Below are positions 4,744 through 22,005 of a stretch of DNA of 37,299 nucleotides, one piece after another. The stretch comes from a virus. The translations under genes were made by a program, and so were the position numbers. The stretch is taken from IMG/VR virus record IMGVR_UViG_3300033516_000134, positions 1 through 37,299 of that record. One strand, 5' to 3'. The notes under the pieces were generated by a model. That model had not been told where the DNA came from and did no database searches. It saw only the letters and a list, made by a program, of their open reading frames with translations. Numbering within the stretch: the first letter of the stretch is position 1; each line of letters opens with the position of its first letter.

Positions 4744-7277
4744 ATCACCTGCGCTTTCAGAGTCATGTTGTCGCCTGCCTGCTCGTTGATCGCTCCGATC
4801 AAACCGCGCACCTGCCCGGCGCTGAAGTTGTTTCCATAGAGCGAGACATTGACCTGCGATGTTGACCCGGCGCTGCGCTCATCGGTTGACGCGCCGGTTC
4901 CATTGCCCTGCGATGTTGCGCCGCCGCCGCCACCGCCTGCGCTGCCTCCACCCTGGTACTGGGTGGTTGCGATCTTGATGACATTCGCCATGCCTGCCGC
5001 GACGATCATCGCGGTCGCGGCAATAGCTGCGGCTGGACCCATCGTGGCAGCGGACGCCATAGCGTTCGTCGCTGCGAGGTAGGTGCTGATCGTGGCTTGC
5101 GCTATGCTGAACGCCTTCCACATCATAAACTCTTTACGTTTTTTCTGATCCATCGCAGCAGCGAAAGCGCCGAACATATTGCCCATCGCACCAAGCACCA
5201 TCTGTTCAGCCGCCATGCGTAGCTGCGACTCGGTTTGCTTGATCTTGGTCATCGCCGTTTCGTGCGCGGCGTATGCTGCTTCCTGCGTGGCGTATGCCTG
5301 CTCGTCCGTCGCCTGACCAGCAGCCCACTCGCTCTGCGCCGCTGCCAGTTTGTCGGCAAGGCGCTGGTCCTCAATCGCGCGCATCGCCTCGAAGGACTCG
5401 AAGCGTTGAGCGAGCGAGAGGTCCGAGTATTGGGTCTGCAGATTCAGGCGTTCCATTTCGGCATCGGCAACAAGGTCGCGCATCTTGCCTTCGTGCGCCA
5501 TCCGCAGCGAAGCAATCGCTTCCATCTTTTCCGACTCTTTGCCGATCGCCTCGGCATTGAACGCCTCTAGCGCCGCAAGCCTTTCAGCATAGACGGTGCG
5601 CTCTGCTTCGACTGGACCCATTGCGCCGAGCATGAAGTCCGCGCGAGCCTGCGCCGCCTTATCGTACAAACCCTTCCATTCATCGGACAGTTTGTCGATT
5701 GCCGCCTGCTCATCATCAGTCGTGACGCGCATCGCTGGCGCAGCGCCACGCACCGGGGCAACGGACGGACCAGTCGCCGCTTCGTTTGCCTTTTCAATTT
5801 CTGTGCTGACTCCCGCCCACTGCATGACCAGATTGTGAATGGATGATTCGCTTGCAATGCGGTTGAAGTAGTCAACGGTTTTCTGCGTAGCTCCAGCGAA
5901 CTCGTCCTTCAGATCAGCGAACCAGCCCGAGACGAAAGACTTCCCGTTGACATTGCCAAGCCCGTCCAGAGCGCCGCGCATCTGGTCGGTGCCGATCTTG
6001 ACCCGACCGCTGGCCGATTCGATGCCGCGCTTGACATCGGTATCGACGGTCATCGCCCAGTTCTCGAAGTCCATACCAAGCTGCGCCAGCGACTCACCGC
6101 CAGCGATACCGAACTGCTTGAACAGTTCGCCAAGGTTCCGCATCTTGCCAGCAATGTTCATCGACAACCACTTGAACAGTTCCAAGAACCCACCCTTGAT
6201 GTTCTGGAACAGGTAGTCGAGACTGCCCCAGATCACCTTCGCCATACCGGCGAACAGATCGACAAGGCCAGGGATCGCGCGACCGAGATAGGTGACGAAC
6301 TGGACCGCCTTTTCCAGCGCAGCCGACAAGGCGTAGCCGATGCCGCTGCCGAGTCCCTTCAGAGCGGTGAACGCCAGATCGACAACGCGCCACAGATCCA
6401 GCACCACCGCCACCGCCAGCTTGGCAGTCTCGGTCACGATGCCGAGGATAGTGCCAACCGACCCGCTTGCCTCGGTCGCCTTGCGTGCTTCCTGCGCCAT
6501 CCACGAAAAGTCATCAGCGACGGCGGCAATCGCCTTGCCGCTCATCGTTTCGATTGTCCCCTTCAGCTTTTCAATTTCGTCGCCTGCATCCTTCAGCGCA
6601 GAGACTTCGAGCTTCGAGAGAACGCGACCCGTCCGCTCCGCTTCCAGTCCGGTCTGCTTGATCGCCTCCGCACCCATGCCGACCAGTTCGGCCATGTTGC
6701 GTGCTTCCTTGCCGAAGATCATCTGCGACATGGCGTAGCGATCTTGTGAATTCGTGACGGTATTCAGCCCTTCGGCCAGCCGGTAAAACGCTTCCTCGGT
6801 CCCGGCTTCCTTCAGGGACGCTGCGCTGGTCCCGAAGTTGCGGAGGATCTGCGCCGCATCGGACCCGCTGTCGGATGCCGCAGAAATGAACTGCGACATC
6901 TTGAGCAGCGAATTGTTCATGCCTGACATCGAACTGCCCGACTCGACCGCCGCAGCCTGAAGGCGCTGCAGTTGCTCGACCGTCATGCCGAGCGCCGCCG
7001 CAGTTTTCCCGAGACTGTCGCCACGCTCGAAGGCAGCGGACACGGTGCTGAAGGTTGCGTAGGCAGCAGCCGCGCCAACCATCGCACCGCCGAAGGACTT
7101 CACATGGCTGGCAACGGCAGCAAAGGACGCACCGATCTTGGAGTCGATGCGTCCCGTGACTGCGGTGATGTTGCGCTGGAACTCGGTCGCCGCCTGCTGC
7201 GCCTTGACGAAAGCAGCCTGCAGCCCGGCAGATGATCCGGTGATGGCGACCGAGAGGGTTCCGACCTGCTGCGTCAT
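4740..7277 (-). CDS. Tail tape measure protein
   Basis: 845 aa, Ala/Gln/Glu-rich helical sequence with hydrophobic Ala/Gly segments and a Gly-rich tail (GGGSAGGGGGGATSQGNG). Directly follows the chaperone pair; its ATG overlaps the stop of the frameshift ORF (ATGA). Confidence 0.85.
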   Translation of the reverse strand: MTQQVGTLSVAITGSSAGLQAAFVKAQQAATEFQRNITAVTGRIDSKIGASFAAVASHVKSFGGAMVGAAAAYATFSTVSAAFERGDSLGKTAAALGMTVEQLQRLQAAAVESGSSMSGMNNSLLKMSQFISAASDSGSDAAQILRNFGTSAASLKEAGTEEAFYRLAEGLNTVTNSQDRYAMSQMIFGKEARNMAELVGMGAEAIKQTGLEAERTGRVLSKLEVSALKDAGDEIEKLKGTIETMSGKAIAAVADDFSWMAQEARKATEASGSVGTILGIVTETAKLAVAVVLDLWRVVDLAFTALKGLGSGIGYALSAALEKAVQFVTYLGRAIPGLVDLFAGMAKVIWGSLDYLFQNIKGGFLELFKWLSMNIAGKMRNLGELFKQFGIAGGESLAQLGMDFENWAMTVDTDVKRGIESASGRVKIGTDQMRGALDGLGNVNGKSFVSGWFADLKDEFAGATQKTVDYFNRIASESSIHNLVMQWAGVSTEIEKANEAATGPSVAPVRGAAPAMRVTTDDEQAAIDKLSDEWKGLYDKAAQARADFMLGAMGPVEAERTVYAERLAALEAFNAEAIGKESEKMEAIASLRMAHEGKMRDLVADAEMERLNLQTQYSDLSLAQRFESFEAMRAIEDQRLADKLAAAQSEWAAGQATDEQAYATQEAAYAAHETAMTKIKQTESQLRMAAEQMVLGAMGNMFGAFAAAMDQKKRKEFMMWKAFSIAQATISTYLAATNAMASAATMGPAAAIAATAMIVAAGMANVIKIATTQYQGGGSAGGGGGGATSQGNGTGASTDERSAGSTSQVNVSLYGNNFSAGQVRGLIGAINEQAGDNMTLKAQVM

Positions 7278-7525
7278 AGCTCGACTCCGATGGTCCGTAG
7301 ATGTTCCGTCAAGCCAGCCAGCCGGTCCTCGTCATAGAGGCTGCTGTTCCCGACCTGAACCGTCCGCACTTTCGCGCGCACTTCCATCAGCAGGCACATT
7401 TCCCGATAGGTCATGTTCCAGGCATCGTCCATGCGCTGCCCATATTCGAGGACGCAGATTGCGGCGCAGGCACTCCAGTCGAGTCCGTCGCCTAGTTCTA
7501 GGTCTGCGCCGCTTCCGGTTTTCCC
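7274..7525 (-). CDS. -1 frameshift extension of the tail assembly chaperone (gpGT-like product)
   Basis: My own translation of the -1 frame gives an open 81-codon frame from the slippery site to TGA at 7276-7274: TGSGADLELGDGLDWSACAAICVLEYGQRMDDAWNMTYREMCLLMEVRAK...IGVEL. It has no start codon near its 5' end and fills the otherwise empty gap between chaperone and tape measure. Confidence 0.7.
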   Translation of the reverse strand, partial: GKTGSGADLELGDGLDWSACAAICVLEYGQRMDDAWNMTYREMCLLMEVRAKVRTVQVGNSSLYDEDRLAGLTEHLRTIGVEL

Positions 7526-7881
7526 TCGGCCACCGCATCCTTCGCCTGACGGAGTGCCTTTTCGCCGGTCACGGCGTTGCCCAGGAACTCCATGTAGTTC
7601 GGAATATGGTTCGCCAGCCCGTCACGGTAGATCGCTGCGCCGATCTCATCGAAGGTCGGAGGACGCGCGTGCGACTTCCATGCAGCGGTGATGCCTGCAT
7701 GGTATGCCGCAGCGACCGCCTTGAACGGTGCGCTCTGCCTTTCGCCCAACGCCTTCATCGCCTCGAAGACCGACATATGCGCTCGGTCCTCGAAGGCGAC
7801 GATGGCGGCAAACGATGGCCGCATGATGTAAGTTTTTCCGTCAAGGGTGACTTCGATTTCACCCGCTGCGACATTAGCCAT
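7498..7881 (-). CDS. Tail assembly chaperone (GTA g10-like)
   Basis: 127 aa between the major tail protein and the tape measure. N-terminus GEIEVTLDGKTYIMRPSFAAIVAFED resembles GTA-type chaperones; a slippery site sits near the 3' end. Confidence 0.75.
   Translation of the reverse strand: MANVAAGEIEVTLDGKTYIMRPSFAAIVAFEDRAHMSVFEAMKALGERQSAPFKAVAAAYHAGITAAWKSHARPPTFDEIGAAIYRDGLANHIPNYMEFLGNAVTGEKALRQAKDAVAEGKPEAAQT
7519..7525 (-). promoter_or_regulatory. Slippery heptamer G_GGA_AAA for -1 programmed ribosomal frameshifting
   Basis: Plus strand ttttccc equals minus strand GGGAAAA. The zero-frame phasing GAG GGA AAA CCG (EGKP of the chaperone) fits the X_XXY_YYZ rule. It lies 6 codons before the chaperone stop. 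Confidence 0.7.
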
Positions 7882-7928: not shown

Positions 7929-8342
7929 TCAGGGGGCAGCGGTATAGGCAACCGCGCCAGCGGACGCGAGCGACAGCGTGTACTGCTCCGCGCCGTTGTA
8001 TTCACCGTTGCGCTCGCAACTGGTGATCAGGAACGCGCCGAGGAACGAATCACCACGACCGCTGATGAGCTTCAGCGTGATGATCGCACCGTTGGTCACA
8101 TCGGACATGATGTCATCCAGAATCGAAGCGTCACTGAAGACGCCGCTGGCCGACATTTCCATCGACCGGATGCCGCAGGCGAGCAACTGACGCCAGGGGG
8201 TGTCGCCCTTATCGGTGACATCGACCTGCTCGTTGTTGATGGTCATGCTGGTGGAGCGCATGCCTGCGATGGTGGTGTAAGTGAACGGACCCGCTCCATC
8301 TTGCTTCTGGATGAGGAAGTCCTTGCCGCAATACTTCGCCAT
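7929..8342 (-). CDS. Major tail (tube) protein, TP901-1 / GTA g9-like
   Basis: 137 aa with motifs GKDFLI, MRSTSMTINNEQVDVTDKGDTPWRQLL and NGEYNGAEQYTLSL that are typical of this family. Canonical position upstream of the chaperones. Confidence 0.8.
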   Translation of the reverse strand: MAKYCGKDFLIQKQDGAGPFTYTTIAGMRSTSMTINNEQVDVTDKGDTPWRQLLACGIRSMEMSASGVFSDASILDDIMSDVTNGAIITLKLISGRGDSFLGAFLITSCERNGEYNGAEQYTLSLASAGAVAYTAAP

Positions 8343-8364
8343 GACTGGTTCCCTTTCGTGGGTT

Positions 8365-8772
8365 TCAGGTGGTCACAATGCAGGTGAATCGCTGCACAGT
8401 GTGGTGAGTTAGTCCGTCCGGTTCGGTGAAGCTACCGTGAAAATCGTGCCGCAACAGCAGCGATTGCCCACTGGTCATCCCGGTGAACGGAGCGAGGTGG
8501 AGCAGCGCATCGACCCGATCGGCAATGGTCTGCGCTTGCTTGTCGCCTCGGTGATCGGTCCAGGTATCAACGACCAGAGCGCCGCTGAACCCGGCAGAGT
8601 CCTTGGTATCCCACTCATCGCTGGTTTCCCAACGGACCCGCACGGCAGGCAGCGGTTCGTCCTGCGGCAGATGGTTGAACACCCTGCCGCCGACCAGCGC
8701 CGACAGAGGCGCGTCCTGGCTCAACCGCTCCCAGGCGACCTTGGTAATTTCGGCATGGCTCGGGCTGGTCAT
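8365..8772 (-). CDS. Tail terminator / completion protein (DUF3168-like, GTA g8-like)
   Basis: 135 aa. LSALVGGRVFNHLPQDEPLPAVRV resembles the DUF3168 N-terminus; lies directly upstream of the tube gene. Confidence 0.65.
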   Translation of the reverse strand: MTSPSHAEITKVAWERLSQDAPLSALVGGRVFNHLPQDEPLPAVRVRWETSDEWDTKDSAGFSGALVVDTWTDHRGDKQAQTIADRVDALLHLAPFTGMTSGQSLLLRHDFHGSFTEPDGLTHHTVQRFTCIVTT

Positions 8773-9227
8773 GGCGAGCCTCCGTCGAACGCCTTGTCCA
8801 GTTCTTCCTTGATGATGGCAGCGGCGCGGACCCTGGTCGCCTCCATCGCTGGCCGAAGGAACGGGCGTGCTTCGATGACGGTACCGCGACCGCGACCGGC
8901 GCGGAGGGTGCCGAACTCTAGTGCCGCAGCGTAGTCGGTGCGCGCCTGGACATAGGCGACCGCCTCGACCGCTGGCGCTGCAGCGACTACCGATATGGAC
9001 CGCGCGAGGTTGCCAGTGTCGTTGGCTGGCGACTGGCCGGGTGCCGATGCTCGGTGCTTGCCATACCGGCGACCGGACTTCGGACCCTTCATCACCCGCC
9101 TGCGCGCATCGCCTTGCACCAGCATGGCGGCGCGCGTGGTCCCACGGGCGACCGCCTTCCCGGTCTTCTGCTTGAGGCGATCGAACGAAGCGATCAGTTC
9201 TTTCGTCCCGGTGACGCGCACGGTCAT
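8769..9227 (-). CDS. HK97 gp10-family head-tail joining protein
   Basis: 152 aa with the motif GRRYGKHRASAPGQSPANDTGNLARSI characteristic of the HK97 gp10 family; 4-nt overlaps on both sides. Confidence 0.7.
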   Translation of the reverse strand: MTVRVTGTKELIASFDRLKQKTGKAVARGTTRAAMLVQGDARRRVMKGPKSGRRYGKHRASAPGQSPANDTGNLARSISVVAAAPAVEAVAYVQARTDYAAALEFGTLRAGRGRGTVIEARPFLRPAMEATRVRAAAIIKEELDKAFDGGSP

Positions 9228-9577
9228 TGCTCCACCCCCGCTTCAGCGATCAGGCGCAGGAACTTGTTGCGCGACAGCACATTCTCGACACCCCTGATGT
9301 TCCAGAGCGTCCCGTTCCATGACAGGCGATCCTCGACCGTGATGTCGGTGCGCCGCCATGTCGTAAATTCCCACCGCTCGAAGGTGCGGATGCGGCCGAG
9401 CGCACCATCAGCAAACCGTTCATCGCTGGCCTTGTTCTCCACGAAGCAATAGATGGTGGCGAAGTCGGCCCAGGTCTTGTCCTGACCGCCGCTGCCATCT
9501 GGCGTATAAGTCACCCGCTGGACAACCACGGGTTGCCGCAGATCACCTGCCGTGTAATCGTCGGTGCGCTTCCTCAC
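9224..9577 (-). CDS. Head closure / head-tail adaptor (SPP1 gp16-like)
   Basis: 117 aa. DLRQPVVVQR...PDGSGGQ...W...IYCFVE...TVEDRLSWNGTLWNI fits the head-tail joining family pattern. Confidence 0.75.
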   Translation of the reverse strand: MRKRTDDYTAGDLRQPVVVQRVTYTPDGSGGQDKTWADFATIYCFVENKASDERFADGALGRIRTFERWEFTTWRRTDITVEDRLSWNGTLWNIRGVENVLSRNKFLRLIAEAGVEQ

Positions 9578-10305
9578 AGGGTCGAAACCCGCAGGATGCG
9601 GTACGGGTCGAGGGCTGCGCGGATCGAAGGCAGCGCCAGCACATCAGGCTGCGCGTCCGCATTGTCGCCCCGGTTCGACCAGAGCGCCGCAGCGATGAGC
9701 ATGACGCCATGCCGCAGGCTGGCAGGGACAGCAGATGCCGCCGCGCCATAGCCAAGGGTGTAGTCCGCTCTGATCGACTTGGCGACCCGCAGCGTGGTCG
9801 GCCATGTCGCGCCACGCTGAAGGATCACGCGCGCCGGTTGGTCAGGGTCTTCACGGTCAATCAGGTAAAGACCGGTGTCCATCACCGACTCGCTGCCATC
9901 ATCAGCGATGCTGGTCACGCTGGCGAAGGCAGTCACCGGAAGCCCGAGCAGATCGAACCAGCGGAACTGCCCCATGTTCGCGTAAGCGACCGGCGCTTGC
10001 GTCACCCCGGCACCCCAGGAAGTGAAGTCATTGCCGGTGCCTGGGATGCAGTCGAGCCACATGCGGACGGTGCGCTGGATCAGGCGGCGCGACAGATAGT
10101 TCTCGACCATTTCGGTCGCTGCTTCGATGAGCGTGGACAGGTAGGAATCCTCGGTCGCATGCGTCACCCGCAGGTGCGCCTTCAGGACTGCCAGATCAAG
10201 CGGCAGAGCGGCAGGACCACTGACGGTCTGCAGGCGCTTGAAGACGGCGCGCGGCACCGTCCAGCCACCGAGAGGAACGGAGGATGGGTAGATGCCTGCC
10301 GACAT
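9574..10305 (-). CDS. Head-tail connector (gp6-like)
   Basis: 243 aa. LDLAVLKAHLRVTHATEDSYLSTLIEAATEMVENYLSRRLIQRT is the classic gp6-like connector motif. Confidence 0.75.
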   Translation of the reverse strand: MSAGIYPSSVPLGGWTVPRAVFKRLQTVSGPAALPLDLAVLKAHLRVTHATEDSYLSTLIEAATEMVENYLSRRLIQRTVRMWLDCIPGTGNDFTSWGAGVTQAPVAYANMGQFRWFDLLGLPVTAFASVTSIADDGSESVMDTGLYLIDREDPDQPARVILQRGATWPTTLRVAKSIRADYTLGYGAAASAVPASLRHGVMLIAAALWSNRGDNADAQPDVLALPSIRAALDPYRILRVSTL

Positions 10306-10601
10306 TAGATCCTCCGCTCTGAACGCTTCAGCCCGATCTTATCGCAGAGCGCGACCAGCGCCTCGCCTGGACCGAAAACCCCACGCTGGATGGCCGAGGT
10401 CACGGCGAGCTTCAGCGCATCGGCAACCCACTTGTTCGGGACTGCGATCGGTCCCGACAGGTCGGAATCACGCAGCCACTTCAGCGCATCGGTCCCGTCA
10501 CCGATCAGGTCGAGGGCGGTGGCCCAGCCCGGCGAACGCAGAGCGATCACCAGCGCCTCTCTGTCATCTGTGGTGATGGTGATGGTTTGGGGTTCCGACA
10601 T
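10305..10601 (-). CDS. Hypothetical protein
   Basis: 98-aa ORF with host-like codon bias, 1-nt overlap with the connector gene; no recognisable motif. Confidence 0.6.
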   Translation of the reverse strand: MSEPQTITITTDDREALVIALRSPGWATALDLIGDGTDALKWLRDSDLSGPIAVPNKWVADALKLAVTSAIQRGVFGPGEALVALCDKIGLKRSERRI

Positions 10602-10664: not shown

Positions 10665-11000
10665 TTAGACCGCAGACTGCGCGGCTGCTGCCGCTGCTGC
10701 CGCTGCAGCCGCTGCCCGCTCGGCTGCGACATCCGCCTGCTCCAGCGCATCGACCGCCGCCTGGATTGGCGCGAGCAGCGGCAGCAAGGCGGCATCGCAA
10801 ACCGGCGAGCCATCGGGCAGGAAAGCGATGTCGCGGTTGATGGTGCGAGTGACCGACCGCGCCACGATGCTGCCGGTGTCGGTCATTTCCTCGACCTGCT
10901 CGCGCACTATGCGGATGCGATAGCGTTCAGGGTCGTCCAGGTCGAGCGTGATGCGACGGGTGCGCGGACGAGGATCAGCGATGGTGATAGTCTTAGGCAC
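10665..11000 (-). CDS. Hypothetical protein with C-terminal poly-Ala tract
   Basis: 111-aa ORF following the 944-aa gene. Twelve consecutive Ala codons at 10680-10715. Confidence 0.6.
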   Translation of the reverse strand: MPKTITIADPRPRTRRITLDLDDPERYRIRIVREQVEEMTDTGSIVARSVTRTINRDIAFLPDGSPVCDAALLPLLAPIQAAVDALEQADVAAERAAAAAAAAAAAAQSAV

Positions 11001-11009
11001 TGGATGTTC

Positions 11010-13844
11010 CTATGCTGGTTCGATGATGAGCCACGCGACATCGACTGTCGATGATCCGGTGACGGTGATGCTGAAACTTGTTCCAGGGATGCGGCTGGTT
11101 ACTTCTGCTGCGGTCGCGGTGCCGCCGTTAGCCTGAACGCATAGGAAGATGCGCGAGTTGGCGGTCACCTTGGTCGTGCTGACGGTCGCTGATCCACCGC
11201 TGGTTGCGACAAGCCCCATCGTGGCATCGCTACCCTCCGCAACCTTCACACCCTTGCCTGCGGTGCCGCACACAATGTCCCCACCAAACCACGACTCACC
11301 GCCGATCACTCTGATCGCCTGATTGCGTGTGCTTCCTCTGGTTGGTTCTTCGATGACGATTCCATAGTGATTCGTTATCGACACGCCGGATGCGAGCGGA
11401 GGCAGGTTGGCGATGTATCCGCCATAGTAGTTGGTCAGCGCGAGCGCACCGCCTGCCCCGAGTGCCTGACCAAGATCGCCCTTTTCGTACCAGCCAGCAA
11501 CTCCAGTGACTATGCGCGATGTGACTAATGCCGAGTTGCTGCGCAGGTTTGTGCGGTTAGCAGACAACGCGACGATTGCAGTCTTGTCGCCGGTGATGTT
11601 CTGGACGCTTGGCTGGTTGAGGATGCTAGCGCATTCAGCGGTGGTCGATGCGCCGCCTGTAAGCTGCCCAAATGTCCTGACTGCTGCTCCAAGATCATTG
11701 CTGATGCTGCGGTACACATCGGCACCGCCATTCGCGGCAACGGTCGGGGCGAATGTGATTGAATTCTGCTGAACCGTAACTAGCGCAGTACCGGCGATGG
11801 TGATAGTGAACGATGTGGATATCAGGCGCGATGAGGCAAACGCTGTGTTGATCGCGCTGCCGCTGGTCCCTGCCGCATATGCGCGATGCTCTACCGCTCC
11901 ACCTGCCGCACTCCCCGTTCCGCGACCGGCATAGATGATGAGGTCAGCGCCAGCGATGTTGGTTCCGGTTGCGTCCGTGGTCTGGAAAGTGAAAGCGGCA
12001 GGAGTGGCGCTGGTCGGTCCGCTGCCAACAATCATCTGCGTGTACCCATCACCTGCGCCACCGATCACAATCTGGTTCGTAGCGGTGGTCCATGAGTCAG
12101 TGCCGAGTACAAGGCAGTCCAGATGATCGGCAACGCTGGACCAGCCAATAACGATGGAGTCCTCAACCGGAACCGAAACATGACCACCGATGCCGATTCC
12201 GCGACCGACACCTGAACTCACCGATGCGCCGCGACCGATGGCGATGGTGTCGTTTGATCTTGATGCCGCGCCTTGCCCAACTGCGATTGAACCGGACCCG
12301 CTGGCGATGACCGAGCCTCCGATGCCGACCACATTAGTAGCCGACTCACAGTTGGCGTTGTTTCCAATAAGCACGCCAGCGCCGGTCTTCGCAACACCGC
12401 CAGGTCTTCCTGCCCTGTACCCGATGGCTATCATATTGGCAGATTGCGAGTATGCCTCGCTTCCGATGACAACGCATCTGTTCGCATTGCCCGATGCTAA
12501 CCCTCCAATCGCAACGCTTTCCTCCCCTGCGCCTGCGGTGTCTCCAATCGCAACGCCAAAGGCACCATCGACGCCGCTGTCAGCGCCGATGCTGACCGCT
12601 CCATCACCTGCGACGAACACATGGGCATCTGATCCGATAGCGATGGAGTCTTGACCATCCGCACCGATGTTGTCTCCAATGGCAATGCTGTTTGATCCAG
12701 TTGCGTTGGCTTGGTATCCAAGCGCGACAGCGTTATTACCTGTCGCATATGACGATGCTCCAACCACGATGCTTCCGCCTGCCGTCGCCTCACTCGCACC
12801 GCCAACGCAGATTGATTGTGCTCCAACCGCCTCGGCAAAACATCCGACCGCAATACTCAGGTCCGAGGATGAAACGGCACTATCGCCAACCGCAACAGAC
12901 TGCGTTCCGTTGGAGACCACATTGTTGCCGATGCCGACCACGAACGCAGCCGAACCAGGGTCAGCGTTTGAGCCAACAAGCACGCCTCCGCCAACCCGAG
13001 TCACGCCGCCTGGGCGACCAGCACGATAGCCAATGGCTATGCCTGTTCCGGTTGCCTCCTGACCCACAGCAACGGCATAGTCTGAAGTTGCTGAGGCTGA
13101 CCGACCCACGACCACTACACCGCTGGCCGATGCCGTCACGCCGAACCCGATGGCGGTGACATAGGTCGCACCGTAGCTGCCGACCACACCGGTGGCGCTG
13201 CCGAGCAAGATGCCGTTCTGAAGGTTGATCGTGGATGCGCCGCCGCGCACGATGCAGATGCCGTTGTTGCCGAGTATGCCTGTGCGATCACTCGCCAGGA
13301 TCAGCATGCCGTTGGAGCCAGATGCGGTGCCGGTTGCCCGACCAAACACTGCGTTGGCACCACCAACCGATCCGTGAACCAGCAGATCAGCGCCAACCGC
13401 CACGGTGCGCGACAGGTCGGAGCCGACAGGCGCAAAGGTGATCGACGCGCCAACAGCAACCGCCTGCGTTCCAGGCACCGAGCCAAAGTGACCTGGGCCT
13501 GCGACAAATGAGTTGTCAATCTTGGCAGGATCTGGTGAGGCTCGCAAAGATCCAACCACACGCAGCGCCGAGGCATCCCAGGTCAGGTTTGCGTCTGCTG
13601 TGATGCTGTCGGTGCTGGCCCAGAACGCGACCGCAGATGCGATGCCACTGCCGCGACCTTCGACACGGGTGCCGAGGTCGGCAACGATGCCGCTGATGCC
13701 AAGGTCGGCGTATGCCTGCGCGACCACATCGGACCAGAGGATATGGCGCGAGCCTGTCGGGCTGGTGTCGATGACGGCATACAGCAGAGCGCCGCCAGCG
13801 AGCGTGGCGACTGAAGTAAGCGCCGAAACCTTGATGCCTGCCAT
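11010..13844 (-). CDS. Large fibre protein with Gly-rich adhesin-like (YadA-head / beta-roll type) repeats
   Basis: 944 aa. The central ~450 aa is made of degenerate SIAVG / AVALG / SIAIG units. There is an internal duplication (IAIGYRAGRPGGV... at aa 269 and aa 472). No signal peptide or membrane anchor. The C-terminal ~100 aa are beta-rich. Confidence 0.6.
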   Translation of the reverse strand: MAGIKVSALTSVATLAGGALLYAVIDTSPTGSRHILWSDVVAQAYADLGISGIVADLGTRVEGRGSGIASAVAFWASTDSITADANLTWDASALRVVGSLRASPDPAKIDNSFVAGPGHFGSVPGTQAVAVGASITFAPVGSDLSRTVAVGADLLVHGSVGGANAVFGRATGTASGSNGMLILASDRTGILGNNGICIVRGGASTINLQNGILLGSATGVVGSYGATYVTAIGFGVTASASGVVVVGRSASATSDYAVAVGQEATGTGIAIGYRAGRPGGVTRVGGGVLVGSNADPGSAAFVVGIGNNVVSNGTQSVAVGDSAVSSSDLSIAVGCFAEAVGAQSICVGGASEATAGGSIVVGASSYATGNNAVALGYQANATGSNSIAIGDNIGADGQDSIAIGSDAHVFVAGDGAVSIGADSGVDGAFGVAIGDTAGAGEESVAIGGLASGNANRCVVIGSEAYSQSANMIAIGYRAGRPGGVAKTGAGVLIGNNANCESATNVVGIGGSVIASGSGSIAVGQGAASRSNDTIAIGRGASVSSGVGRGIGIGGHVSVPVEDSIVIGWSSVADHLDCLVLGTDSWTTATNQIVIGGAGDGYTQMIVGSGPTSATPAAFTFQTTDATGTNIAGADLIIYAGRGTGSAAGGAVEHRAYAAGTSGSAINTAFASSRLISTSFTITIAGTALVTVQQNSITFAPTVAANGGADVYRSISNDLGAAVRTFGQLTGGASTTAECASILNQPSVQNITGDKTAIVALSANRTNLRSNSALVTSRIVTGVAGWYEKGDLGQALGAGGALALTNYYGGYIANLPPLASGVSITNHYGIVIEEPTRGSTRNQAIRVIGGESWFGGDIVCGTAGKGVKVAEGSDATMGLVATSGGSATVSTTKVTANSRIFLCVQANGGTATAAEVTSRIPGTSFSITVTGSSTVDVAWLIIEPA

Positions 13845-13847
13845 GAT

Positions 13848-14327
13848 TTATCCCTCGACCTGTAGGTTGTCCGCGCCGCTTTCCACCAAGATCAGCAACC
13901 CGCCCTCGGTGATCAGATCCACGGACTCAACGAAGTCGAGCGCCGCAGCCGATTGGAACGCCACTTCGTATCGCTCGCCGTCATTATGTTCGCCGCTGCG
14001 GGTCAGAGCGACTATCTGGTACGCGCCTTCGGCCAGGATGTCCGCGCCGCTTTCCACGCGCACCTGCAGCGGATCACCTGTGAAGCTGGCCGAGCATATG
14101 GCGTTCCAGACCGAGCGGGTCAGATCATCGCGCATCACCCCGGCAGCGAAAGACTCGGCAAAGCGAACACCGCAGCGGGTGAGTTCCCGCCACGGTGATG
14201 CTTTGCCCGAGGACTCGACTTCCTCGTTCTGGATGATGAGTCTGGTCGAACGCTCACCGGGCAGGTTCTCCCATTGCCCGGCGATGAAGACCAGAACGCG
14301 AAAGTCCCGCCCGGCGCGTGACGCCAT
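13848..14327 (-). CDS. Second tail-tube-fold protein (paralogue of the major tail protein)
   Basis: 159 aa, alignable by eye with 7929..8342: GRDFRV/GKDFLI, ERSTRLIIQNEEVE/MRSTSMTINNEQVD, SPWRELTRCGVR/TPWRQLLACGIR, GERYEVAFQSAAAL/AEQYTLSLASAGAV. It has an extra 30-aa acidic tail. Confidence 0.6.
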   Translation of the reverse strand: MASRAGRDFRVLVFIAGQWENLPGERSTRLIIQNEEVESSGKASPWRELTRCGVRFAESFAAGVMRDDLTRSVWNAICSASFTGDPLQVRVESGADILAEGAYQIVALTRSGEHNDGERYEVAFQSAAALDFVESVDLITEGGLLILVESGADNLQVEG

Positions 14328-14344: not shown

Positions 14345-14731
14345 TCAGATCGGGTTCGTGACCGGACGCTGCGCCGGGTAGCCGAGCGAGGCGGTGACGG
14401 TCAGGATGGTGCTGGCCGAGAGGACCGTGACCACACGGGCGTACCGCTTCGCGCCGATATAGGCGATGCGGCGCGTGGTGCTGACGGCATGCGCGCCGCC
14501 ATCGTTGATGACCGCAGCGGCAGCGGCAGCAGCCCACGCCGAGTTGTCATCGGATTCCTCGACCGTGATGCTGGTGGGTTCCGGTGCGGTCGCGCCGAAG
14601 TGCAGGTTGAAGGTGGCCGAGTCGTACCCCGACAGATCGACCGAGGCGCTGGTGATGGTGCCGGTGGCAGCGGCGGAAAGGCCAGCCAGAGCGATCGAAC
14701 GCTCGTTGTGCATCGTTTCGCGGTTGGGCAT
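14345..14731 (-). CDS. Hypothetical protein, possible capsid accessory / decoration protein
   Basis: 128-aa beta-rich ORF, first gene after the capsid gene, with AAGGGA ribosome-binding site upstream of the ATG. Function is suggested by position only. Confidence 0.5.
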   Translation of the reverse strand: MPNRETMHNERSIALAGLSAAATGTITSASVDLSGYDSATFNLHFGATAPEPTSITVEESDDNSAWAAAAAAAVINDGGAHAVSTTRRIAYIGAKRYARVVTVLSASTILTVTASLGYPAQRPVTNPI

Positions 14732-14858: not shown

Positions 14859-16103
14859 TCAGGCGGCGCACTTCAGGAGCTTGATCGCCTCGAAGTTGAC
14901 CACATCACCGCCCGTGCGCTTCACCCCGTAGAACAGGACGAAGGGCTTGGCGCTGAACGGGTCGCGGAGGATGCGGATACCCTGGCGATCGACAATCTGG
15001 TACGCTTCGCGCCAGTTGGCGAAGGCGACCGGGAAGGCGTTCGCGCCGATGAGCGGCATGTCATTGAACTCGGCAATGGCGTAGCCGAGCAGGGTCGAGG
15101 GCTGACCGCCCAGACCGGGTTGCCACAGGTAGTTGCCCAGGTTGTCGCGCAGGCGGCGCACGCGAGCGAAGGTGCTGCGGTGCATGGCGAAGGCGGTGCC
15201 GGGAATGTCGCGGTACTGCGACTTCAGGCTGAACACCAGATTGATCAGCGAGTCGGCCTGCGCCGGGTCGGTGCCAGAGGCAGGGACCGGAGCGAAGTCG
15301 GCGGCAGCGCCGGTCTTGGTGAACCCGATCTGCTTCAGAGCGAAGTAGTTCAGGCTGCTGTCATCAGCGACAGCGGTGTAGTTCATGAAGCCCTTCGGCT
15401 GGGTGACGCCGTTGCCATTGACGAAGGCGGCGTTTTCCAGGCGCGCGAACTTGTCGGCCATCTTGGTCGAAAGCCAGCCCTCGGCATCCCACGCCGCATC
15501 GTCCAGCAATTTCTGGGTGGCGGCAGGCTGGGCATAGACCTCATGCGTCGGGATGCGCCACATGCCGAGCTTGGCGTTGCCGGTCTGCGCACGCGCCGTG
15601 CTTTCGCCAACCCAGCCAGCCGACGCCTCGTCGGAATCGACCGGGCCTTCGAGCGCATCGGTGCTGATGGTCTGCACATTGGCGAACTGGCGAATGGGCG
15701 AAGTCTCGAAGATCCGCTTGACCATGCGACCGCTCATGTCGGCGTGGACCATGTAGCCACCCTGCGTGTCATCGGCCACCTGCAGCGCCTTGCGCTCCAG
15801 TTCGGGCAGACCGGCGTCGATGCCCTTGCGGACATAGTTCAGGAACGCCGCCTTGTGCTGCGCGACTTCCTCGCGCTCCGCAGGCTTGCCGTCCGCGCCG
15901 AGGACCGGGCTGCGCTTGAAAGCGGTTTCCAGTTTGTTCAGGCGGTCGGTCTTTTCGTCGATGCTGGTGTTGATCGCAGCCAGCTTGGACTCGAAGTCAG
16001 CGACGGACTTGCCGTCAGCCTTCGCCTTCAACTGCTCGGTGTGGGTTTTCTTGAAGTCGGCCCAGTCCTTCTGGATGCCGTCGATCAGTTCCTTGACTTC
16101 CAT
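14859..16103 (-). CDS. Major capsid protein, HK97 family
   Basis: 414 aa with an N-terminal coiled delta-like domain (MEVKELIDGIQKDWADFKKTHTEQLKAK...) followed by an HK97-type body; directly follows the prohead protease. Confidence 0.9.
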   Translation of the reverse strand: MEVKELIDGIQKDWADFKKTHTEQLKAKADGKSVADFESKLAAINTSIDEKTDRLNKLETAFKRSPVLGADGKPAEREEVAQHKAAFLNYVRKGIDAGLPELERKALQVADDTQGGYMVHADMSGRMVKRIFETSPIRQFANVQTISTDALEGPVDSDEASAGWVGESTARAQTGNAKLGMWRIPTHEVYAQPAATQKLLDDAAWDAEGWLSTKMADKFARLENAAFVNGNGVTQPKGFMNYTAVADDSSLNYFALKQIGFTKTGAAADFAPVPASGTDPAQADSLINLVFSLKSQYRDIPGTAFAMHRSTFARVRRLRDNLGNYLWQPGLGGQPSTLLGYAIAEFNDMPLIGANAFPVAFANWREAYQIVDRQGIRILRDPFSAKPFVLFYGVKRTGGDVVNFEAIKLLKCAA

Positions 16104-16142
16104 GATGCTCTGCTCCCGGTGGGGGTTGATGGTTTGCGCGGG

Positions 16143-16829
16143 TCAATCGTCGTGCGATTCGCCACGCAGGATGGCACGAAGACGAAGCAGGTCGCGCATG
16201 TCGGCGGCTGCATCCTTCGGAGGATCATAGGTCGCAGCGAGGCGAGCGAACCCGCCTGCAAGCAGCGCCTTCGCCTGATGCTCGGTCATGCCAGCGTCGG
16301 TCAGAGCGCGCAACAGGTGCGCCTCGGACGGAGCGGCATCGTCGGTCATTAGCGACTTCATCATGGTCACGATCGCCTTCGGGTTCATCCCGTAGCCGAC
16401 CACGCTGACTTCGAACAGGTCCACTTCCTCCAAGGAACGGACCTGTTTCTTTTCATCGTAGCTCCACCGCTTCGCAGCGTAGCCGATGCTCAAGCCCTTC
16501 GGCCCGGTGCCGCGCATCATGTTGCACGCCTTGCGGGACGCCTCGGTTTCGGCATCGCCAGTCCATAGCTGACCCTCGACCACCAGACCACGCGCGTCCT
16601 CGCGCATTTCGATCCAGTCGCCAATAGGTTCGCTGCGATCGTGCATCCAGCAGAGCGCAGGCAGGGTGCTGGTCTTCGCGTGCGCTTCCAGGGACTTGCC
16701 GAAGCAGCCCTTCACGCAGACATCCTTGCCCAGATCCACATTGCCGAAAGTGCTGCCGTAGCCCTTGAAGCGACCCGGCTGGGACGCATCCATCTTCACT
16801 TCGCAGAGCGGAGCGCAGAGGGTGAGCAT
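16143..16829 (-). CDS. Prohead protease, HK97 family
   Basis: 228 aa with motifs EVK...GRFKGYGSTFGNVDLGKD, WMHDRSEPIG and GLSIGY typical of HK97-type maturation proteases. Confidence 0.85.
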   Translation of the reverse strand: MLTLCAPLCEVKMDASQPGRFKGYGSTFGNVDLGKDVCVKGCFGKSLEAHAKTSTLPALCWMHDRSEPIGDWIEMREDARGLVVEGQLWTGDAETEASRKACNMMRGTGPKGLSIGYAAKRWSYDEKKQVRSLEEVDLFEVSVVGYGMNPKAIVTMMKSLMTDDAAPSEAHLLRALTDAGMTEHQAKALLAGGFARLAATYDPPKDAAADMRDLLRLRAILRGESHDD

Positions 16830-16873
16830 GCGCGTTTGTAATGACTGCCGTTGCGGACGCTAGTGGGAACTGT

Positions 16874-17683
16874 TTAGACGGATTCGTATGTCGCAACGCA
16901 CCGGCAGTTGATGATTTCTTGCGGCGGTCCATCTGGATCAGACGGGAACATAAGTTCAGCGCCGCCAACGATGAACGGTTCGTCAAGGTCGCGCCGCTGC
17001 CCATCCGCCTCGGCGTGCGATTCGCGGGTTCGATCATCCTCCGTGCTGGTCCAGACCTTCACCGTCTTCAGCCCGAGGTCATCGGAAACCTCGCGCATGT
17101 TCTCGAATTCACCCTTGCCGATGGCAGCAGCGGACTCGGTTCGAGCGATGGTTTCGGCTCGTGCCGGTGAAATGCTGGCGACCCGCTGGCGTATCTCGCG
17201 CGCAATTTCCCGAGGGTGCGCCTGCTCTGCCAGCCCGGCAGCAATGGCGTTCCTGATGCGCGCCTGCGTGGTGCGTCCGATGCTCACCGACCGCGCTGCC
17301 TTCGCCTTCGCCCACTTGGCAATGCGTGCGCGCATCTGCTCTGCCGTGTCTAGCTTTCGCTCCCAGGTCGGATGCGCCTTGCCGAGCGCGTCGGCGCTAT
17401 GCTCGACGCCTGCGAGTGCGGCGCGGAGCAATGCCGTTTGGAGCAGCGCCGCCAGCCTGCGCTGGTGATCCTTCATCGTCGGAAGCCAGGACGGGTAGGC
17501 TGCTGCCGCCTCGTTCCCTGCTCGGTTGAACTCCCGCAGCAGCGCCGTCGCCATGCTCCGTTCGTGAGTCGCCTGCAGGCGGTGGAAGGCTCGCGCCTGT
17601 CGGCGGCGCTGCTCTCGGGAAAGGCGCATCGTGGTCATCCTCCATGTCCGTGCCGCAGCGAGCGCAGCGACCAGTCCCATCAT
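16874..17683 (-). CDS. Head morphogenesis protein, SPP1 gp7 / Mu F family
   Basis: 269 aa with ETIARTESAAA...VWTSTEDDRTRESHAEADGQ...INCRCV, the hallmark C-terminal motif series of this family. Confidence 0.85.
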   Translation of the reverse strand: MMGLVAALAAARTWRMTTMRLSREQRRRQARAFHRLQATHERSMATALLREFNRAGNEAAAAYPSWLPTMKDHQRRLAALLQTALLRAALAGVEHSADALGKAHPTWERKLDTAEQMRARIAKWAKAKAARSVSIGRTTQARIRNAIAAGLAEQAHPREIAREIRQRVASISPARAETIARTESAAAIGKGEFENMREVSDDLGLKTVKVWTSTEDDRTRESHAEADGQRRDLDEPFIVGGAELMFPSDPDGPPQEIINCRCVATYESV

Positions 17684-17710: not shown

Positions 17711-17884
17711 TCACCGCTTCGTTTCCATCAGGTAGGCAGGCATGGTCGCGCCTGGGCAAACATGCACAGGCATTTCGCGCAGGATCGTGCCGTCCTTGCC
17801 GACAAGCCATGCCATCAGGCGGTGCCGATCCCGCACCAGAATCAGCTTACCGGCTGGCGTCTGCTGCTCACTGACCGGCAGCAT
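17711..17884 (-). CDS. Small hypothetical protein (57 aa, below the ORF-track cutoff)
   Basis: My own translation: MLPVSEQQTPAGKLILVRDRHRLMAWLVGKDGTILREMPVHVCPGATMPAYLMETKR. High GC at third codon positions. The ATG overlaps the portal 3' end by 17 nt, and the ORF fills an otherwise empty 185-nt gap. Confidence 0.45.
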   Translation of the reverse strand: MLPVSEQQTPAGKLILVRDRHRLMAWLVGKDGTILREMPVHVCPGATMPAYLMETKR

Positions 17885-19454
17885 CGGTCGCCTCGGGTTT
17901 CGGTTTGCGCGGCATGCTCGCCAGAGCAGTCAGCAGCGCATCGACTGCCGCCTCGGCTGCGCTCGGGAAGGCGATGCGGACCACAGCCTCGGCTGCTTCC
18001 GTGGGCAGGGTGCCATCGGCCACCGACTGCACGATGGACAGCAACGACTGGATCTGCGCGCCGTTGAGCGCCGTCGCCTGCACCTGCTCGGCAGGCACGG
18101 CAGGCTCGCCTTCGGCGGTCGCCTCGGTTTCGATTTCCTGCGTTTCGCTGGCGTCATCATCCTCGCCTTCGACATCGGTCTGGGTTTCGTCGCCATCCTC
18201 GGGCAGCAGCGCACCGCCGAGCGGGACCAAGGTGGACGGCATGAACACCTCATCCGCGCCAGGATCAGCGATGGCAGGAAGCCCGGTCGCCAACCGCTTT
18301 TCGTTCAGCGTCATCCACGATGACTGCGTGACGCTCAACCAGCGAGCGGCGCGCACTCCTGCCAGCGCAGGCAGATCCTCGGTGTAAAGCACGATGCGAA
18401 CATCGGGGCCGAAGGACGGAGCGAGCCAGGAGTTGAGCGAATCGACCAGCGATTCTGCAACCGGAATCACCGTGTCTTGGTAGAGCGCCTGCCGGGCTTC
18501 CTGATAATTCGCGTAGGTATTGTCGCCAGGGATTCCCAGCACCATCGGAGGCACGCCGAAGGCCAGCGCAATTTCACGCGCCGAGTTCGCCTTGCCTGCC
18601 ATCCAGTCCATTTCCGCAGGCGACAGGCTCATCGCCTGCCACTCCATGCCGCCTTCGAGCAGCATGGGTCGGCCAGCGTTGCTACCGCCAGCGTAGGCGT
18701 TGTTCAGTTGTTCCTTCAGCGACTCGAACTGCTTTTCCGACAGGGTGGCGGGTGAGCCATTGCCAGCGCCACGATAGACCAGCGCACCGCTCGGGCGGCA
18801 TCCGTTCTGCAGCAGCGACTGGTTCCACGCGCCTGCCTCGTTGTGAGCATCGACCGCGAACGCTGCCGCCTCGACAGGCGATTGCCCGTACCAGTCATCA
18901 GTCGGGTGGAAGAACTTCATGTGCAGGACCGGCGAGGTTCCGGTCAGCGGATCGACCGCCCATGATTTCGTCTGACCGTTCACCTCATAGATGAACCCGG
19001 CTGGACCGGACTTGCCGGGCTTGACCTTGGTCCGATCCGGTCGCAGGCACCAGAGTTCGAGCGGCGGCTGGCGATCGGGACCGACGCCTTCGACATAGGT
19101 GTTTCCGGTCAGCATCAGATAGGCGACCACCGCCTCGAAGAACTGCGCGTGACCCGCCCACGGGTTCGGTCGCGCGAGTAGCTTCACCAGCGGATGCGAT
19201 TGGTCGGCCATGCGATCACCGATCATCACCCGCATGGGGATCTTGGCAGCGCCTCGCGCGACCTCGCTGATCGCCTTATAGGCAATCACATTCTTGCGGT
19301 AGGCTTCCTCGGAATACTGCGCCGGGTTGCGCTTGTAGGCAACGCCTCGGTCCTGCCCGGCGTAGGCGACATAAACCAGCGGAGCGGTGGCGCTGGCCTT
19401 GCCCTCGGGCTGCTGACCGAAATGGATGTTCAGACCAAGGAAGGACAGGCGCAT
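17868..19454 (-). CDS. Portal protein, HK97 family
   Basis: Long ORF after terL with an acidic C-terminal tail. I prefer the ATG at 19454 (MRLSFLGL...), which is preceded by GGAGA; the ORF-track start is 19475. Confidence 0.85.
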   Translation of the reverse strand: MRLSFLGLNIHFGQQPEGKASATAPLVYVAYAGQDRGVAYKRNPAQYSEEAYRKNVIAYKAISEVARGAAKIPMRVMIGDRMADQSHPLVKLLARPNPWAGHAQFFEAVVAYLMLTGNTYVEGVGPDRQPPLELWCLRPDRTKVKPGKSGPAGFIYEVNGQTKSWAVDPLTGTSPVLHMKFFHPTDDWYGQSPVEAAAFAVDAHNEAGAWNQSLLQNGCRPSGALVYRGAGNGSPATLSEKQFESLKEQLNNAYAGGSNAGRPMLLEGGMEWQAMSLSPAEMDWMAGKANSAREIALAFGVPPMVLGIPGDNTYANYQEARQALYQDTVIPVAESLVDSLNSWLAPSFGPDVRIVLYTEDLPALAGVRAARWLSVTQSSWMTLNEKRLATGLPAIADPGADEVFMPSTLVPLGGALLPEDGDETQTDVEGEDDDASETQEIETEATAEGEPAVPAEQVQATALNGAQIQSLLSIVQSVADGTLPTEAAEAVVRIAFPSAAEAAVDALLTALASMPRKPKPEATDAAGQ

Positions 19455-19502
19455 GTTGCAGTCTCCAGGCGGCAAGCTACCGGGTTGCGGCGGCAGGTGA
19501 AG

Positions 19503-20795: not shown

Positions 20796-21228
20796 CGCTG
20801 CCCTCTCGCTGGTCCGTCTTCCGCTGCTTGATTTCACCCAGGCGCTTAAACCTCGTTTCAAGCAGGTCGATCAGGCGCGCGGCGTTTTCGTCCGTGGGCT
20901 TGGCTTCCTCGAATACGATACCCGTGGTTTCGCGCCACCCACCCTGGCACTTGAGATAGAATATCAGAGCGGACAGGTTCGGGCGGGTTCCCTTCGCCTG
21001 ATCACCGACCGCCATGTTATAGAGCGCCGCGCCTGCTCGCGCCACGCTCTGCGCTCGACCTTCGTTGAATGTCCCGATCATCCAGCGCCGCAGCGACTCT
21101 TCATCGAACCCGGTGATGAGCGCCGTTTGTGCGAGGTTGCACCCGCTGGCCGAGCAGGTGCGAACCTTGGAAATCAGTTCCGCCGTGATGTCGGCCCGGC
21201 GACGGATGCGCTGGCGTTTCTCGCTCAT
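20767..21228 (-). CDS. terS: Terminase small subunit candidate (HTH type)
   Basis: 153 aa directly upstream of and overlapping terL, with an N-terminal HTH-like segment and LIFYLKCQGGWRE resembling small-terminase motifs. Confidence 0.65.
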   Translation of the reverse strand: MSEKRQRIRRRADITAELISKVRTCSASGCNLAQTALITGFDEESLRRWMIGTFNEGRAQSVARAGAALYNMAVGDQAKGTRPNLSALIFYLKCQGGWRETTGIVFEEAKPTDENAARLIDLLETRFKRLGEIKQRKTDQREGSDAAPPPVAG

Positions 21229-22003: not shown

Positions 22004-22005
22004 GG

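Follow-up and report, generated by a model that had tools for sequence, protein, structure and literature searches.

A tail-tube paralogue paired with an adhesin-repeat fibre in an uncultured phage related to gene transfer agents: a candidate mounting point for accessory fibres

The virus record IMGVR_UViG_3300033516_000134 of IMG/VR is an entire JGI contig of 37,299 bp (from here: the window). On its minus strand, a 159-residue protein with the fold of phage tail-tube proteins is encoded directly upstream of a 944-residue fibre with adhesin-type repeats, away from the canonical tube gene of the same contig. We report that the smaller protein has a genuine tail-tube fold and is a paralogue of the canonical tube protein, that related proteins with added C-terminal sequence form a family in metagenomes, and that the pairing with a fibre gene recurs in other loci. 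The arrangement looks like a variant, recurrent and so far undescribed, of the known use of tube-fold duplicates as mounting points for accessory adhesins. A preliminary description of this DNA had drawn attention to the gene pair; its observation is real, and more general than was held there.

Accessory fibres set the adsorption efficiency and the host choice of phages. How they are mounted on siphophage tails is known for a few models, namely T5, lambda, lactococcal phages and the Rhodobacter capsulatus gene transfer agent (GTA; RcGTA). A further solution recurring in uncultured GTA-related phages would be a spare copy of the tube protein used as a mounting ring and equipped with either a fused domain or a triple-repeat plug. 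If this is true, it accounts for a set of metagenomic genes to which automated pipelines would probably give the label tube protein, gives a simple rule to predict receptor-binding genes outside the tail-tip module and offers a docking peptide, compact and transplantable, with which fibres could be engineered onto particles of phages or GTAs. The docking-peptide idea is a testable hypothesis on short symmetry-matching peptides.

The tube-fold paralogue and its fibre

The two open reading frames (ORFs) lie on the minus strand where the preliminary description had placed them. Together with their parts and the canonical tube gene they are:

7929-8342, minus strand: canonical 137-residue major tail-tube gene (PF06199, E 4.3e-26)
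13848-14327, minus strand: 159-residue tube-fold paralogue
13851-13937, minus strand: C-terminal tail of the paralogue, residues 131-159, three units of ~8 residues, VDLITEGG / LLILVESG / ADNLQVEG
11010-13844, minus strand: 944-residue fibre
13665-13844, minus strand: N-terminal domain of the fibre, ~residues 1-60, MAGIKVSALTSVATLAGGALLYAVIDTSPTGSRHILWSD, conserved, by alignment, in fibre-like genes that come after short paralogues elsewhere
12045-13487, minus strand: YadA-head-type 14-residue repeat array of the fibre, residues ~120-600 (PF05658)
11022-11225, minus strand: K1-lyase_C-type beta-rich domain of the fibre, residues 874-941 (PF24146, E 4e-15, 56.5 bits against a cut-off of 27)

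A BLASTP alignment of residues 1-133 of the 159-residue protein to the canonical tube protein has 33% identity (E 7e-21), and the four pairs of matching segments quoted in the preliminary description fall within it. It matches PF06199 (Phage_tail_2) over profile positions 3-131 of 132 with 34.9 bits against a gathering cut-off of 23.8 (E 1.9e-8), the major tail protein family PHROG 1407 and, in a sequence comparison with the PDB, the solved RcGTA tube protein Rcc01691 (E 7.4e-10). Structure prediction, which the preliminary description had named as a check able to overturn its view, returned a tube fold. The AlphaFold2 (AF2) model has a predicted local distance difference test score (pLDDT) of 83, and its best Foldseek match was the RcGTA tube (6tba/6toa, E 3e-9, template modelling score 0.76), followed by the tube proteins of monocin, Sf11, lambda and R4C. 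Among the viral predicted structures in BFVD, all top matches were major tail proteins. Residues 1-130 of the model form the tube beta-sandwich with its long hairpin, including a helix at 71-83 and a loop at 35-54, and residues 131-159 are an added acidic tail, as had been described, modelled at low confidence.

A family profile run over the window detects exactly two tube-family ORFs. The major-tube position between tail terminator and chaperones belongs to 7929-8342, which is the parent or partner of the paralogue, and not to the paralogue itself. The latter is a separate gene ~5.5 kb away, located between the fibre gene and the gene of a 128-residue protein (from here: p128). Residues common to the paralogue's clade and to canonical tubes cluster in the hairpin (N34, E35, V37, D38, T40, K42, W46, R47, L49 and G53) and in a second group along the R110-Y120 loop, whereas the two sets diverge in the outer helix and at the C-terminus.

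The fibre gene begins 3 nt past the TAA stop codon of the paralogue, as had been noted, with its own start codon and a ribosome-binding site, a Shine-Dalgarno-like GAGGGA within the 3' end of the upstream gene, and the fibre is predicted to be translationally coupled to the paralogue. Its central repeats are YadA-head repeats (PF05658, E 5.9e-15, 55.6 bits against a cut-off of 25) and match the head structures of YadA (1p9h, E 1e-10), BpaC (7o23) and UspA1 in the PDB. The preliminary description had counted dozens of such units; the repeats are real, and the count was slightly too high, with 19 strict 14-residue units of the type xxSIAVG accompanied by more degenerate ones. Since YadA-head-type repeats fill the central 480 residues, a trimeric left-handed beta-roll adhesin shaft is likely: if the protein is a trimer, the array would form a left-handed beta-roll shaft or head as in YadA. 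The beta-rich C-terminus recognized earlier is the K1-lyase_C-type domain, likely the distal receptor-binding tip, and the N-terminal domain is proposed to be the attachment domain.

Nearly all database matches to the YadA repeats carry signal, stalk or anchor domains. The fibre differs from them: a Pfam search finds no ESPR (PF13018), stalk (PF05662) or YadA-anchor (PF03895) domain, in agreement with the earlier statement that it has neither signal nor anchor. The possibility that the 944-residue protein is a bacterial autotransporter was rejected on these grounds and in view of its phage-fibre N-terminus and K1-lyase_C C-terminus.

A family of decorated tube-like proteins and their C-terminal tails

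The paralogue had been called an orphan, which it is not: it belongs to a family of ~67 cluster representatives in metagenomes. An exhaustive HMMER (phmmer) search of 1.84 billion cluster representatives returned 116 relatives. The strongest of them (E 1e-32 to 1e-10) are unlike ordinary tubes of 130-140 residues, being either 157-177 residues long with a short C-terminal tail or fusions of 250-1270 residues that begin with the tube-like domain. When the tube domains are placed in a neighbour-joining tree, a clade of 67 sequences including that of the window is set apart; each member has at least 19 extra C-terminal residues, whereas canonical tubes have no such addition. The decorated copies of two loci (L013 and L008; loci are numbered with the prefix L) are placed among the canonical tubes and look like independent duplications. 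PF06199 is the sole precomputed annotation on the metagenomic genes of the family. A single-protein IMG/VR scan with the paralogue, and another with the fibre, gave nothing, and a word-indexed protein search with the 159-residue protein found only itself.

The additions within the clade are of two kinds, either a short tail of three repeats, with a fibre gene coming next, or a lectin, immunoglobulin (Ig), PKD or leucine-rich-repeat (LRR) domain fused to the tube domain. The fused parts match He_PIG, Laminin_G_3 (a concanavalin-like lectin), DUF285/LRR, CHB_HEX_C/Fn3_assoc and PKD, which is the usual repertoire of surface-binding decorations of phages.

In 13 short paralogues the length of the C-terminal addition stays within 19-25 residues; a few other clade members have 36-47 residues. 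Tails of 15 short paralogues were examined, and each can be divided into three tandem units of 7-9 residues, for example SILTEDG/IPILAEDS/SPLLQEAAA, SFTVYS/VPFTVYG/LTVTVYGA or DFLLDENS/ANILDENN/QYIQAG. Periodicity was compared with shuffled sequences on 18 tails, comprising these 15 and three adaptor peptides of RcGTA-type head spikes; a triple repeat of period 7-9 was present in all 18, at p<0.05 in 16.

The adaptor peptides of the head spikes, which are described below, share this feature. Three of the four end in a triple repeat (among them DFLTTRGG/DPILTRSG/DNIIWR and TYLRPDGV/STYHRPDGV/SEYLRP), the 43-residue peptide of L163 being the exception. The triple-repeat peptides are 46-48 residues long and, as with the tube paralogues, the next gene encodes a fibre.

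The gene downstream of the short paralogue in L081 begins with MSGIKVSALPAVVTIGATAMLYVAVDTSANGSKKILFGD, a clear homologue of the N-terminus of the window's fibre. In L001, a 306-residue protein starting with MGTKISALPAAA follows directly after the short paralogue, and in L013 a 219-residue protein with a related N-terminus does so, the pair there lying between terminator and tube gene. Related fibre N-termini also occur in L161 and L172. A short paralogue directly followed by a fibre-like gene is thereby present in the window and in three other loci. An exception is L173, where a 173-residue paralogue with a tail of different flavour is followed by a 39-residue ORF and then by a 312-residue protein with an unrelated N-terminus. 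By gene arrangement, a functional coupling of paralogue and fibre is well supported, because adjacency is kept while the distal part of the fibre varies and because the same anchor is fused to adhesin domains elsewhere. Conserved adjacency, an exchangeable distal part and fusions together are the standard signature of an anchor plus receptor-binding module.

From the pattern of the tails and the adjacency of the genes we propose that the triple-repeat tail is a docking peptide for a trimeric fibre. Its three repeats would engage the three subunits of one fibre trimer, by analogy with the five (iso)leucines through which the RcGTA head fibre binds a pentamer. A wider version of this idea may be considered, in which the C-terminal triple repeat is a portable plug for the N-domain of trimeric fibres, displayed either on a star peptide at the spike base of a capsid vertex or on a six-fold tube-fold ring of the tail. 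Head and tail could in that case exchange their fibre cassettes, and the paralogue would represent a type of fibre-bearing ring that has not been seen in any solved siphophage. We regard such a symmetry-adaptor code as conceivable and would not count on it.

Genomic context and the place of the paralogue on the virion

The window contains a full HK97/GTA-like late operon on the minus strand. In addition to the genes listed above, it comprises:

19503-20861, minus strand: terminase
17868-19475, minus strand: portal
16874-17683, minus strand: Mu-F-like protein
16143-16829, minus strand: S78 protease
14859-16103, minus strand: major capsid protein (PF05065)
14345-14731, minus strand: p128, 128-residue jellyroll protein, directly 3' of the capsid gene
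10665-11000, minus strand: 111-residue protein with a C-terminal run of 12 alanines
10305-10601, minus strand: second small protein, between the gene of the 111-residue protein and the adaptor gene
9574-10305, minus strand: head-tail adaptor (PF05135)
9224-9577, minus strand: head completion protein
8769-9227, minus strand: gp10-like protein
8365-8772, minus strand: tail terminator / gp17-like protein
7498-7881, minus strand: tail assembly chaperone
4740-7277, minus strand: tape measure

The canonical tube gene thus stands in the order terminator - tube - chaperone - tape measure, and genes for the distal tail protein (3976-4743) and tip proteins follow downstream of the tape measure. The block of interest lies between capsid and adaptor genes, as had been stated. 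The nearest GenBank phages by capsid have only ~40-44% identity (uncultured phages, Bradyrhizobium phage ppBeUSDA76-1 and Azospirillum phage Cd), and the lineage is therefore essentially uncharacterised. Megablast of 13 kb of the window against GenBank phages gave no match, and a scan of species-representative genomes gave one short contig only. Just upstream of the terminase gene, the minus-strand region 21344-23818 contains a Mom-like DNA modification gene (22504-23211, PHROG 1384, E 1e-43) with genes for ParB-like nuclease domains on both sides.

For comparison, loci were collected from IMG/VR and metagenome scans and by look-ups through homologues of p128; the pattern scan used a 5-sequence subset of the 24-sequence family alignment. 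The p128 protein has 40 homologues, and its position right after the capsid gene is kept in all relatives. Its AF2 model, computed with homologues from the protein search as input, is a jellyroll (pLDDT 84) with weak fold matches to the BPP-1 cement protein, a capsid chain of phage 7-7-1 and XepA/YomS. We consider p128 probably a capsid decoration or cement protein, and it marks the upstream boundary of a variable slot. It was also considered as an RcGTA-type head-spike base and rejected, having no PDB sequence match and only these weak jellyroll matches; the real base homologue is another protein of ~85-90 residues, found in relatives and absent from the window. Among the fetched loci a homologue of the 111-residue protein occurs only in L001, at the same place after the fibre gene (53% identity, E 1.5e-25). 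This protein has no family match and may be a fibre chaperone, an accessory or a further component of the module.

A second tube-like gene was found in ~18 loci, ~14 of which are distinct after removal of duplicates, and the canonical tube gene is in its canonical place in every locus long enough to show one. The tube protein of the window is 56-80% identical to the tubes of close relatives. Canonical tubes of 193-255 residues are encoded in L001 (4534-5115), L002 (14291-14869), L163 (17520-18101) and L007 (8098-8865); compared with the 137-residue tube of the window they seem to have an insertion or extension near the N-terminus.

The place beside the capsid gene is not fixed, and the paralogue occupies several positions. 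It lies between capsid/p128 and adaptor in the window, L001, L002, L088, L162, L163, L170, L172 and L173, directly after the adaptor in L008, and between tail terminator and tube gene in L005/L085, L007, L013 and L167-169. In none of the fetched loci does it follow the tape measure, in the baseplate region. The preliminary description had asked for the order capsid - paralogue - fibre in related genomes: the pairing is indeed found in L001, L081 and L013, and the position varies. In the closest relative, L170 (capsid 69% and p128 72% identical), the paralogue comes right after p128 and is fused to an LRR domain, while the close relatives L083, L171 and L161 have no paralogue and hold other genes in the slot.

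Because relatives differ in its contents, the interval between p128 and adaptor is a variable cassette site, and the assumption that the slot normally holds little or nothing does not apply to this lineage, where head-spike genes and other fibres are found in it. By their distribution, paralogue modules are mobile between this site and the tail module. Several relatives encode there a homologue of Rcc01079, the RcGTA head-spike base (profile against PDB 6tb9, E 1.2e-13), followed by an adaptor peptide of 43-48 residues and/or a fibre gene:

L161, 13870-15177: RcGTA-type head spike
L164, 10451-10988: RcGTA-type head spike
L162, 10906-13702: RcGTA-type head spike
L163, 10674-11077: RcGTA-type head spike
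L002, ~7951-9809: RcGTA-type head spike
L173, 2637-2894: RcGTA-type head spike

The N-termini of the adaptor peptides (MIGLRLGLGL, MPIGIIIGIAL, MPISIGIGVGV) copy the 'five-point star' IALGLGLGL of RcGTA (PMC7296036); the motif was found in L002 and L161 by motif scan and in L162, L163 and L164 by direct reading of the ORFs. It is present in no structural ORF of the window, and the profile of the Rcc01079-type base has no match with E<=10 when the window is translated in all six frames. With both base and star motif absent, the module of the window is not an RcGTA-type head spike. Two further observations concern this slot and its boundary. L161 (MW202897.1, the closest GenBank record) encodes at 15181-17307, downstream of spike base, adaptor peptide and a 275-residue fibre, a 708-residue protein annotated as GDSL-like lipase/acylhydrolase, possibly a head-borne deacetylase. 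The head-tail adaptors of L163 (15372-16265) and L002 (12094-12987) are ~55 residues longer (297 residues) with a weak match to CBM_5_12 (chitin-binding type), which suggests a decorated adaptor.

We propose, and consider slightly more likely than not, that the paralogue is a diverged duplicate of the tail tube specialised as a fibre anchor. Most likely, because tube fold and long stacking hairpin are kept, it would assemble into one or more separate hexameric rings that continue the stack of the ordinary tube, and gene order suggests a position in the head-proximal part of the tail. The 29-residue tail would project outward and bind the conserved N-domain of the trimeric fibre, one repeat per chain and one tail per trimer, with up to six fibres per ring. 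The fibre would be an accessory adhesin, probably polysaccharide-binding, with a lectin-like K1-lyase_C end; it would raise adsorption and leave the irreversible step to the proteins of the tail tip. Sister phages have this tube-like anchor joined to a lectin, Ig, PKD or LRR domain by direct fusion. To a discrete ring in the tail we assign a probability of about 0.45, a small share of which belongs to a position adjacent to the baseplate and the rest to a head-proximal or other position.

Placement in the tail is favoured because several phages encode the module between terminator and tube gene, because a head-spike module and a tube paralogue occur together in relatives such as L002, L162, L163 and L173, because the conserved residues sit in the N34-G53 hairpin and the R110-Y120 loop, and because T5 p140 provides a precedent, T4 gp54 being another extra tube-like ring. 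In solved siphophage tubes, the long loops make the ring-to-ring contacts (PMC10038345, PMC8718954).

Several points weigh against this proposal. In the window and in several relatives the paralogue gene is part of the head module, and since the same slot holds genuine head-spike genes in relatives, a head location retains some probability. The rings of T5 p140 and T4 gp54 adjoin the baseplate and their genes are located there as well (PMC10038345), unlike the paralogue gene, which never comes after the tape measure. Paralogues are 29-42% identical to the window copy compared with 42-80% for the tubes of the same genomes; they evolve about twice as fast as the tube, a pace that one would not expect of a subunit held in the lattice of the tube. 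Tblastn of the 159-residue protein against 50,697 GenBank phage records gave no detectable homologue of the anchor, and with the fused family member P0130 only the LRR part was matched. The periodicity of the window's own tail is weak (p~0.07 in the shuffle test). The N-terminal motif of the fibre type also occurs in small proteins without an upstream triple-repeat tail, so that the pairing of tail and N-domain is proposed from the adjacency of the genes. Finally, paralogue and fibre are known here from their genes, as putative virion proteins.

Another arrangement in the tail would be a co-polymer, in which single subunits or entire rings of the paralogue are interspersed with the major tube protein at many positions of the tail and yield a bottle-brush of fibres, comparable to the decoration of the whole tube by SPP1 gp17.1* or lactococcal MTP-TpeX. 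The hairpin consensus is the same as in canonical tubes, so that stacking on either side seems possible, the gene adjoins the tube gene in several loci, and the fused Ig, PKD, lectin and CHB_HEX_C domains are typical tube decorations (PMC6669499, PMC8718954). However, known mixed tubes are made from one gene extended by frameshift and have identical tube domains, whereas the paralogues of relatives are 33-47% identical to their own tubes, and six 944-residue trimers per ring on many rings would lead to steric crowding. Moreover, T5 p140 and T4 gp54, the tube paralogues that have genes of their own and whose positions have been solved, each form one defined ring (PMC10038345). We consider a co-polymer unlikely, though still a serious alternative.

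A capsid location was one of the guesses of the preliminary description. The tube-like protein would then be a base at the capsid vertices or capsomer centres and the 944-residue protein a head fibre equivalent to the RcGTA spike. Its gene does come after the capsid gene and p128, the same slot in relatives holds Rcc01079-type bases and star-peptide fibres, and head-spike adaptor peptides have the same kind of triple-repeat C-terminus. Yet the relatives with both modules indicate that the paralogue is not a substitute for the spike base, other relatives encode it between terminator and tube, and the elements kept in common with real tubes are ring-stacking loops, which would be pointless on a capsid. 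To our knowledge, which includes a literature search, no capsid decoration with a tube fold has been described. A head fibre is rather improbable in our view. Among the three guesses, the one that places the fibre on the tail tube agrees best with the data, and a separate adhesion organelle finds no support.

If the discrete ring were instead the first above the distal tail protein, the fibres would be side tail fibres of the tip. Both solved extra tube-like rings, T5 p140 and T4 gp54, are at this site (PMC10038345), and side fibres close to the tip are functionally sensible (PMC10038345, PMC13455828). Against this speak the ~18 fetched loci (~14 distinct), in which the gene is never past the tape measure, and the tip of the window itself, which already has three protein paralogues sharing an N-terminal anchor of their own, so that we give this position no more than a slim chance. 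The three consecutive tip genes (55-696, 693-1436 and 1438-2148, minus strand) have the common N-terminal motif I(L/A)DSE(I/V)DPxSP(L/I)TxSLxxRLRDN and diverge completely beyond it, and by sequence they look like a paralogous receptor-binding cassette with a shared anchor.

The gene pair could also be a recently acquired moron or a degenerating copy without a role in the virion. The GC (guanine plus cytosine) content of the fibre gene (11001-13000) is 0.586-0.589, i.e. 0.59 against 0.63-0.65 in the neighbouring late genes, which fits horizontal acquisition or the Gly/Ala/Ser/Ile-rich composition of the repeats, and the paralogue evolves fast. But both ORFs are intact, co-oriented and apparently translationally coupled inside the late operon, a scan for promoters and terminators gave no signal over background, the family is large with conserved architecture and core, and the pairing is kept across distant loci. 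A non-structural or decaying duplicate is very improbable.

Comparison with known systems

A literature search found no description of a separately encoded, decorated tube paralogue or of a triple-repeat docking tail. Two candidate precedents were dismissed: the 'two major tail proteins' of JBD30 are two subunits of one protein, and the RcGTA tailspike TspA of a preprint has a different mode of attachment and no tube paralogue. The earlier statement that no phage appendage matches the arrangement was nevertheless too strong, as T5 p140 and the frameshift-extended tube proteins are clear analogues.

The tube gene of T5 has a duplicate, p140, whose product makes up a single ring and touches, with its C-terminus, the collar to which the side fibres are attached (PMC10038345). 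Together with the p132 collar and the L-shaped fibres pb1 it resembles the proposed module as a tube-gene duplicate used as an extra ring and platform for lateral fibres (PMC10038345), and the paralogue of the window, with 33% identity to its cognate tube, also arose from tube-gene duplication. The systems differ in that T5 interposes an Ig-like collar protein, whereas the anchor's own tail would hold the fibre in the window. In addition, p140 contains its domain in duplicate and assembles as a pseudo-hexameric trimer; its gene belongs to the baseplate region and is restricted to T5-like phages. The anchor described here is a PF06199-type copy of the tube with a single domain, and its gene neighbours that of the capsid or the tube. 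The likeness would be one of role, with no sequence relationship shown.

SPP1 gp17.1* (FN3), MTP-TpeX of the lactococcal 936 group (carbohydrate-binding module) and the Ig domain of lambda gpV also display an adhesin on the outside of the tail by means of a tube domain, and these modules are dispensable accessories (PMC8718954, PMC6669499). Fused members of the decorated family have the same overall architecture. However, in these phages a single tube gene is extended by frameshift or constitutive fusion, whereas the window has a separate, diverged paralogue beside an undecorated tube gene and a separately encoded fibre that would be held non-covalently. The programmed frameshift typical of SPP1 gp17.1* and MTP-TpeX is thus not involved, paralogue and tube being separate genes.

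The RcGTA head spike (base Rcc01079, fibre Rcc01080) resembles the proposed module in that it places an accessory polysaccharide-binding fibre on a short, symmetry-matching repeat, with five (iso)leucines of one chain of the head fibre binding the pentamer (PMC7296036). There the base is a jellyroll pentamer and the repeat is five-fold and belongs to the fibre; here the anchor has the tube fold and bears the repeat itself, with a proposed threefold match. With the autotransporters YadA, BpaC and UspA1 the fibre shares the YadA-head 14-residue repeats over its central 480 residues, and it differs from them by the attachment N-domain of a phage fibre and the depolymerase-type K1-lyase_C end, as a phage fibre reusing the repeat.

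The neck passage structure of lactococcal phages (collar and whiskers) and the side fibres of Ur-lambda resemble the proposed module as lateral fibres with carbohydrate-binding tips mounted on a ring, which surrounds the neck or the distal tail protein; they are dispensable (PMC6669499, PMC13455828). In those systems the ring consists of the Ig-like or BppU-like N-domains of the fibre itself, placed around the tube, whereas in the phage described here the ring would be a part of the tube.

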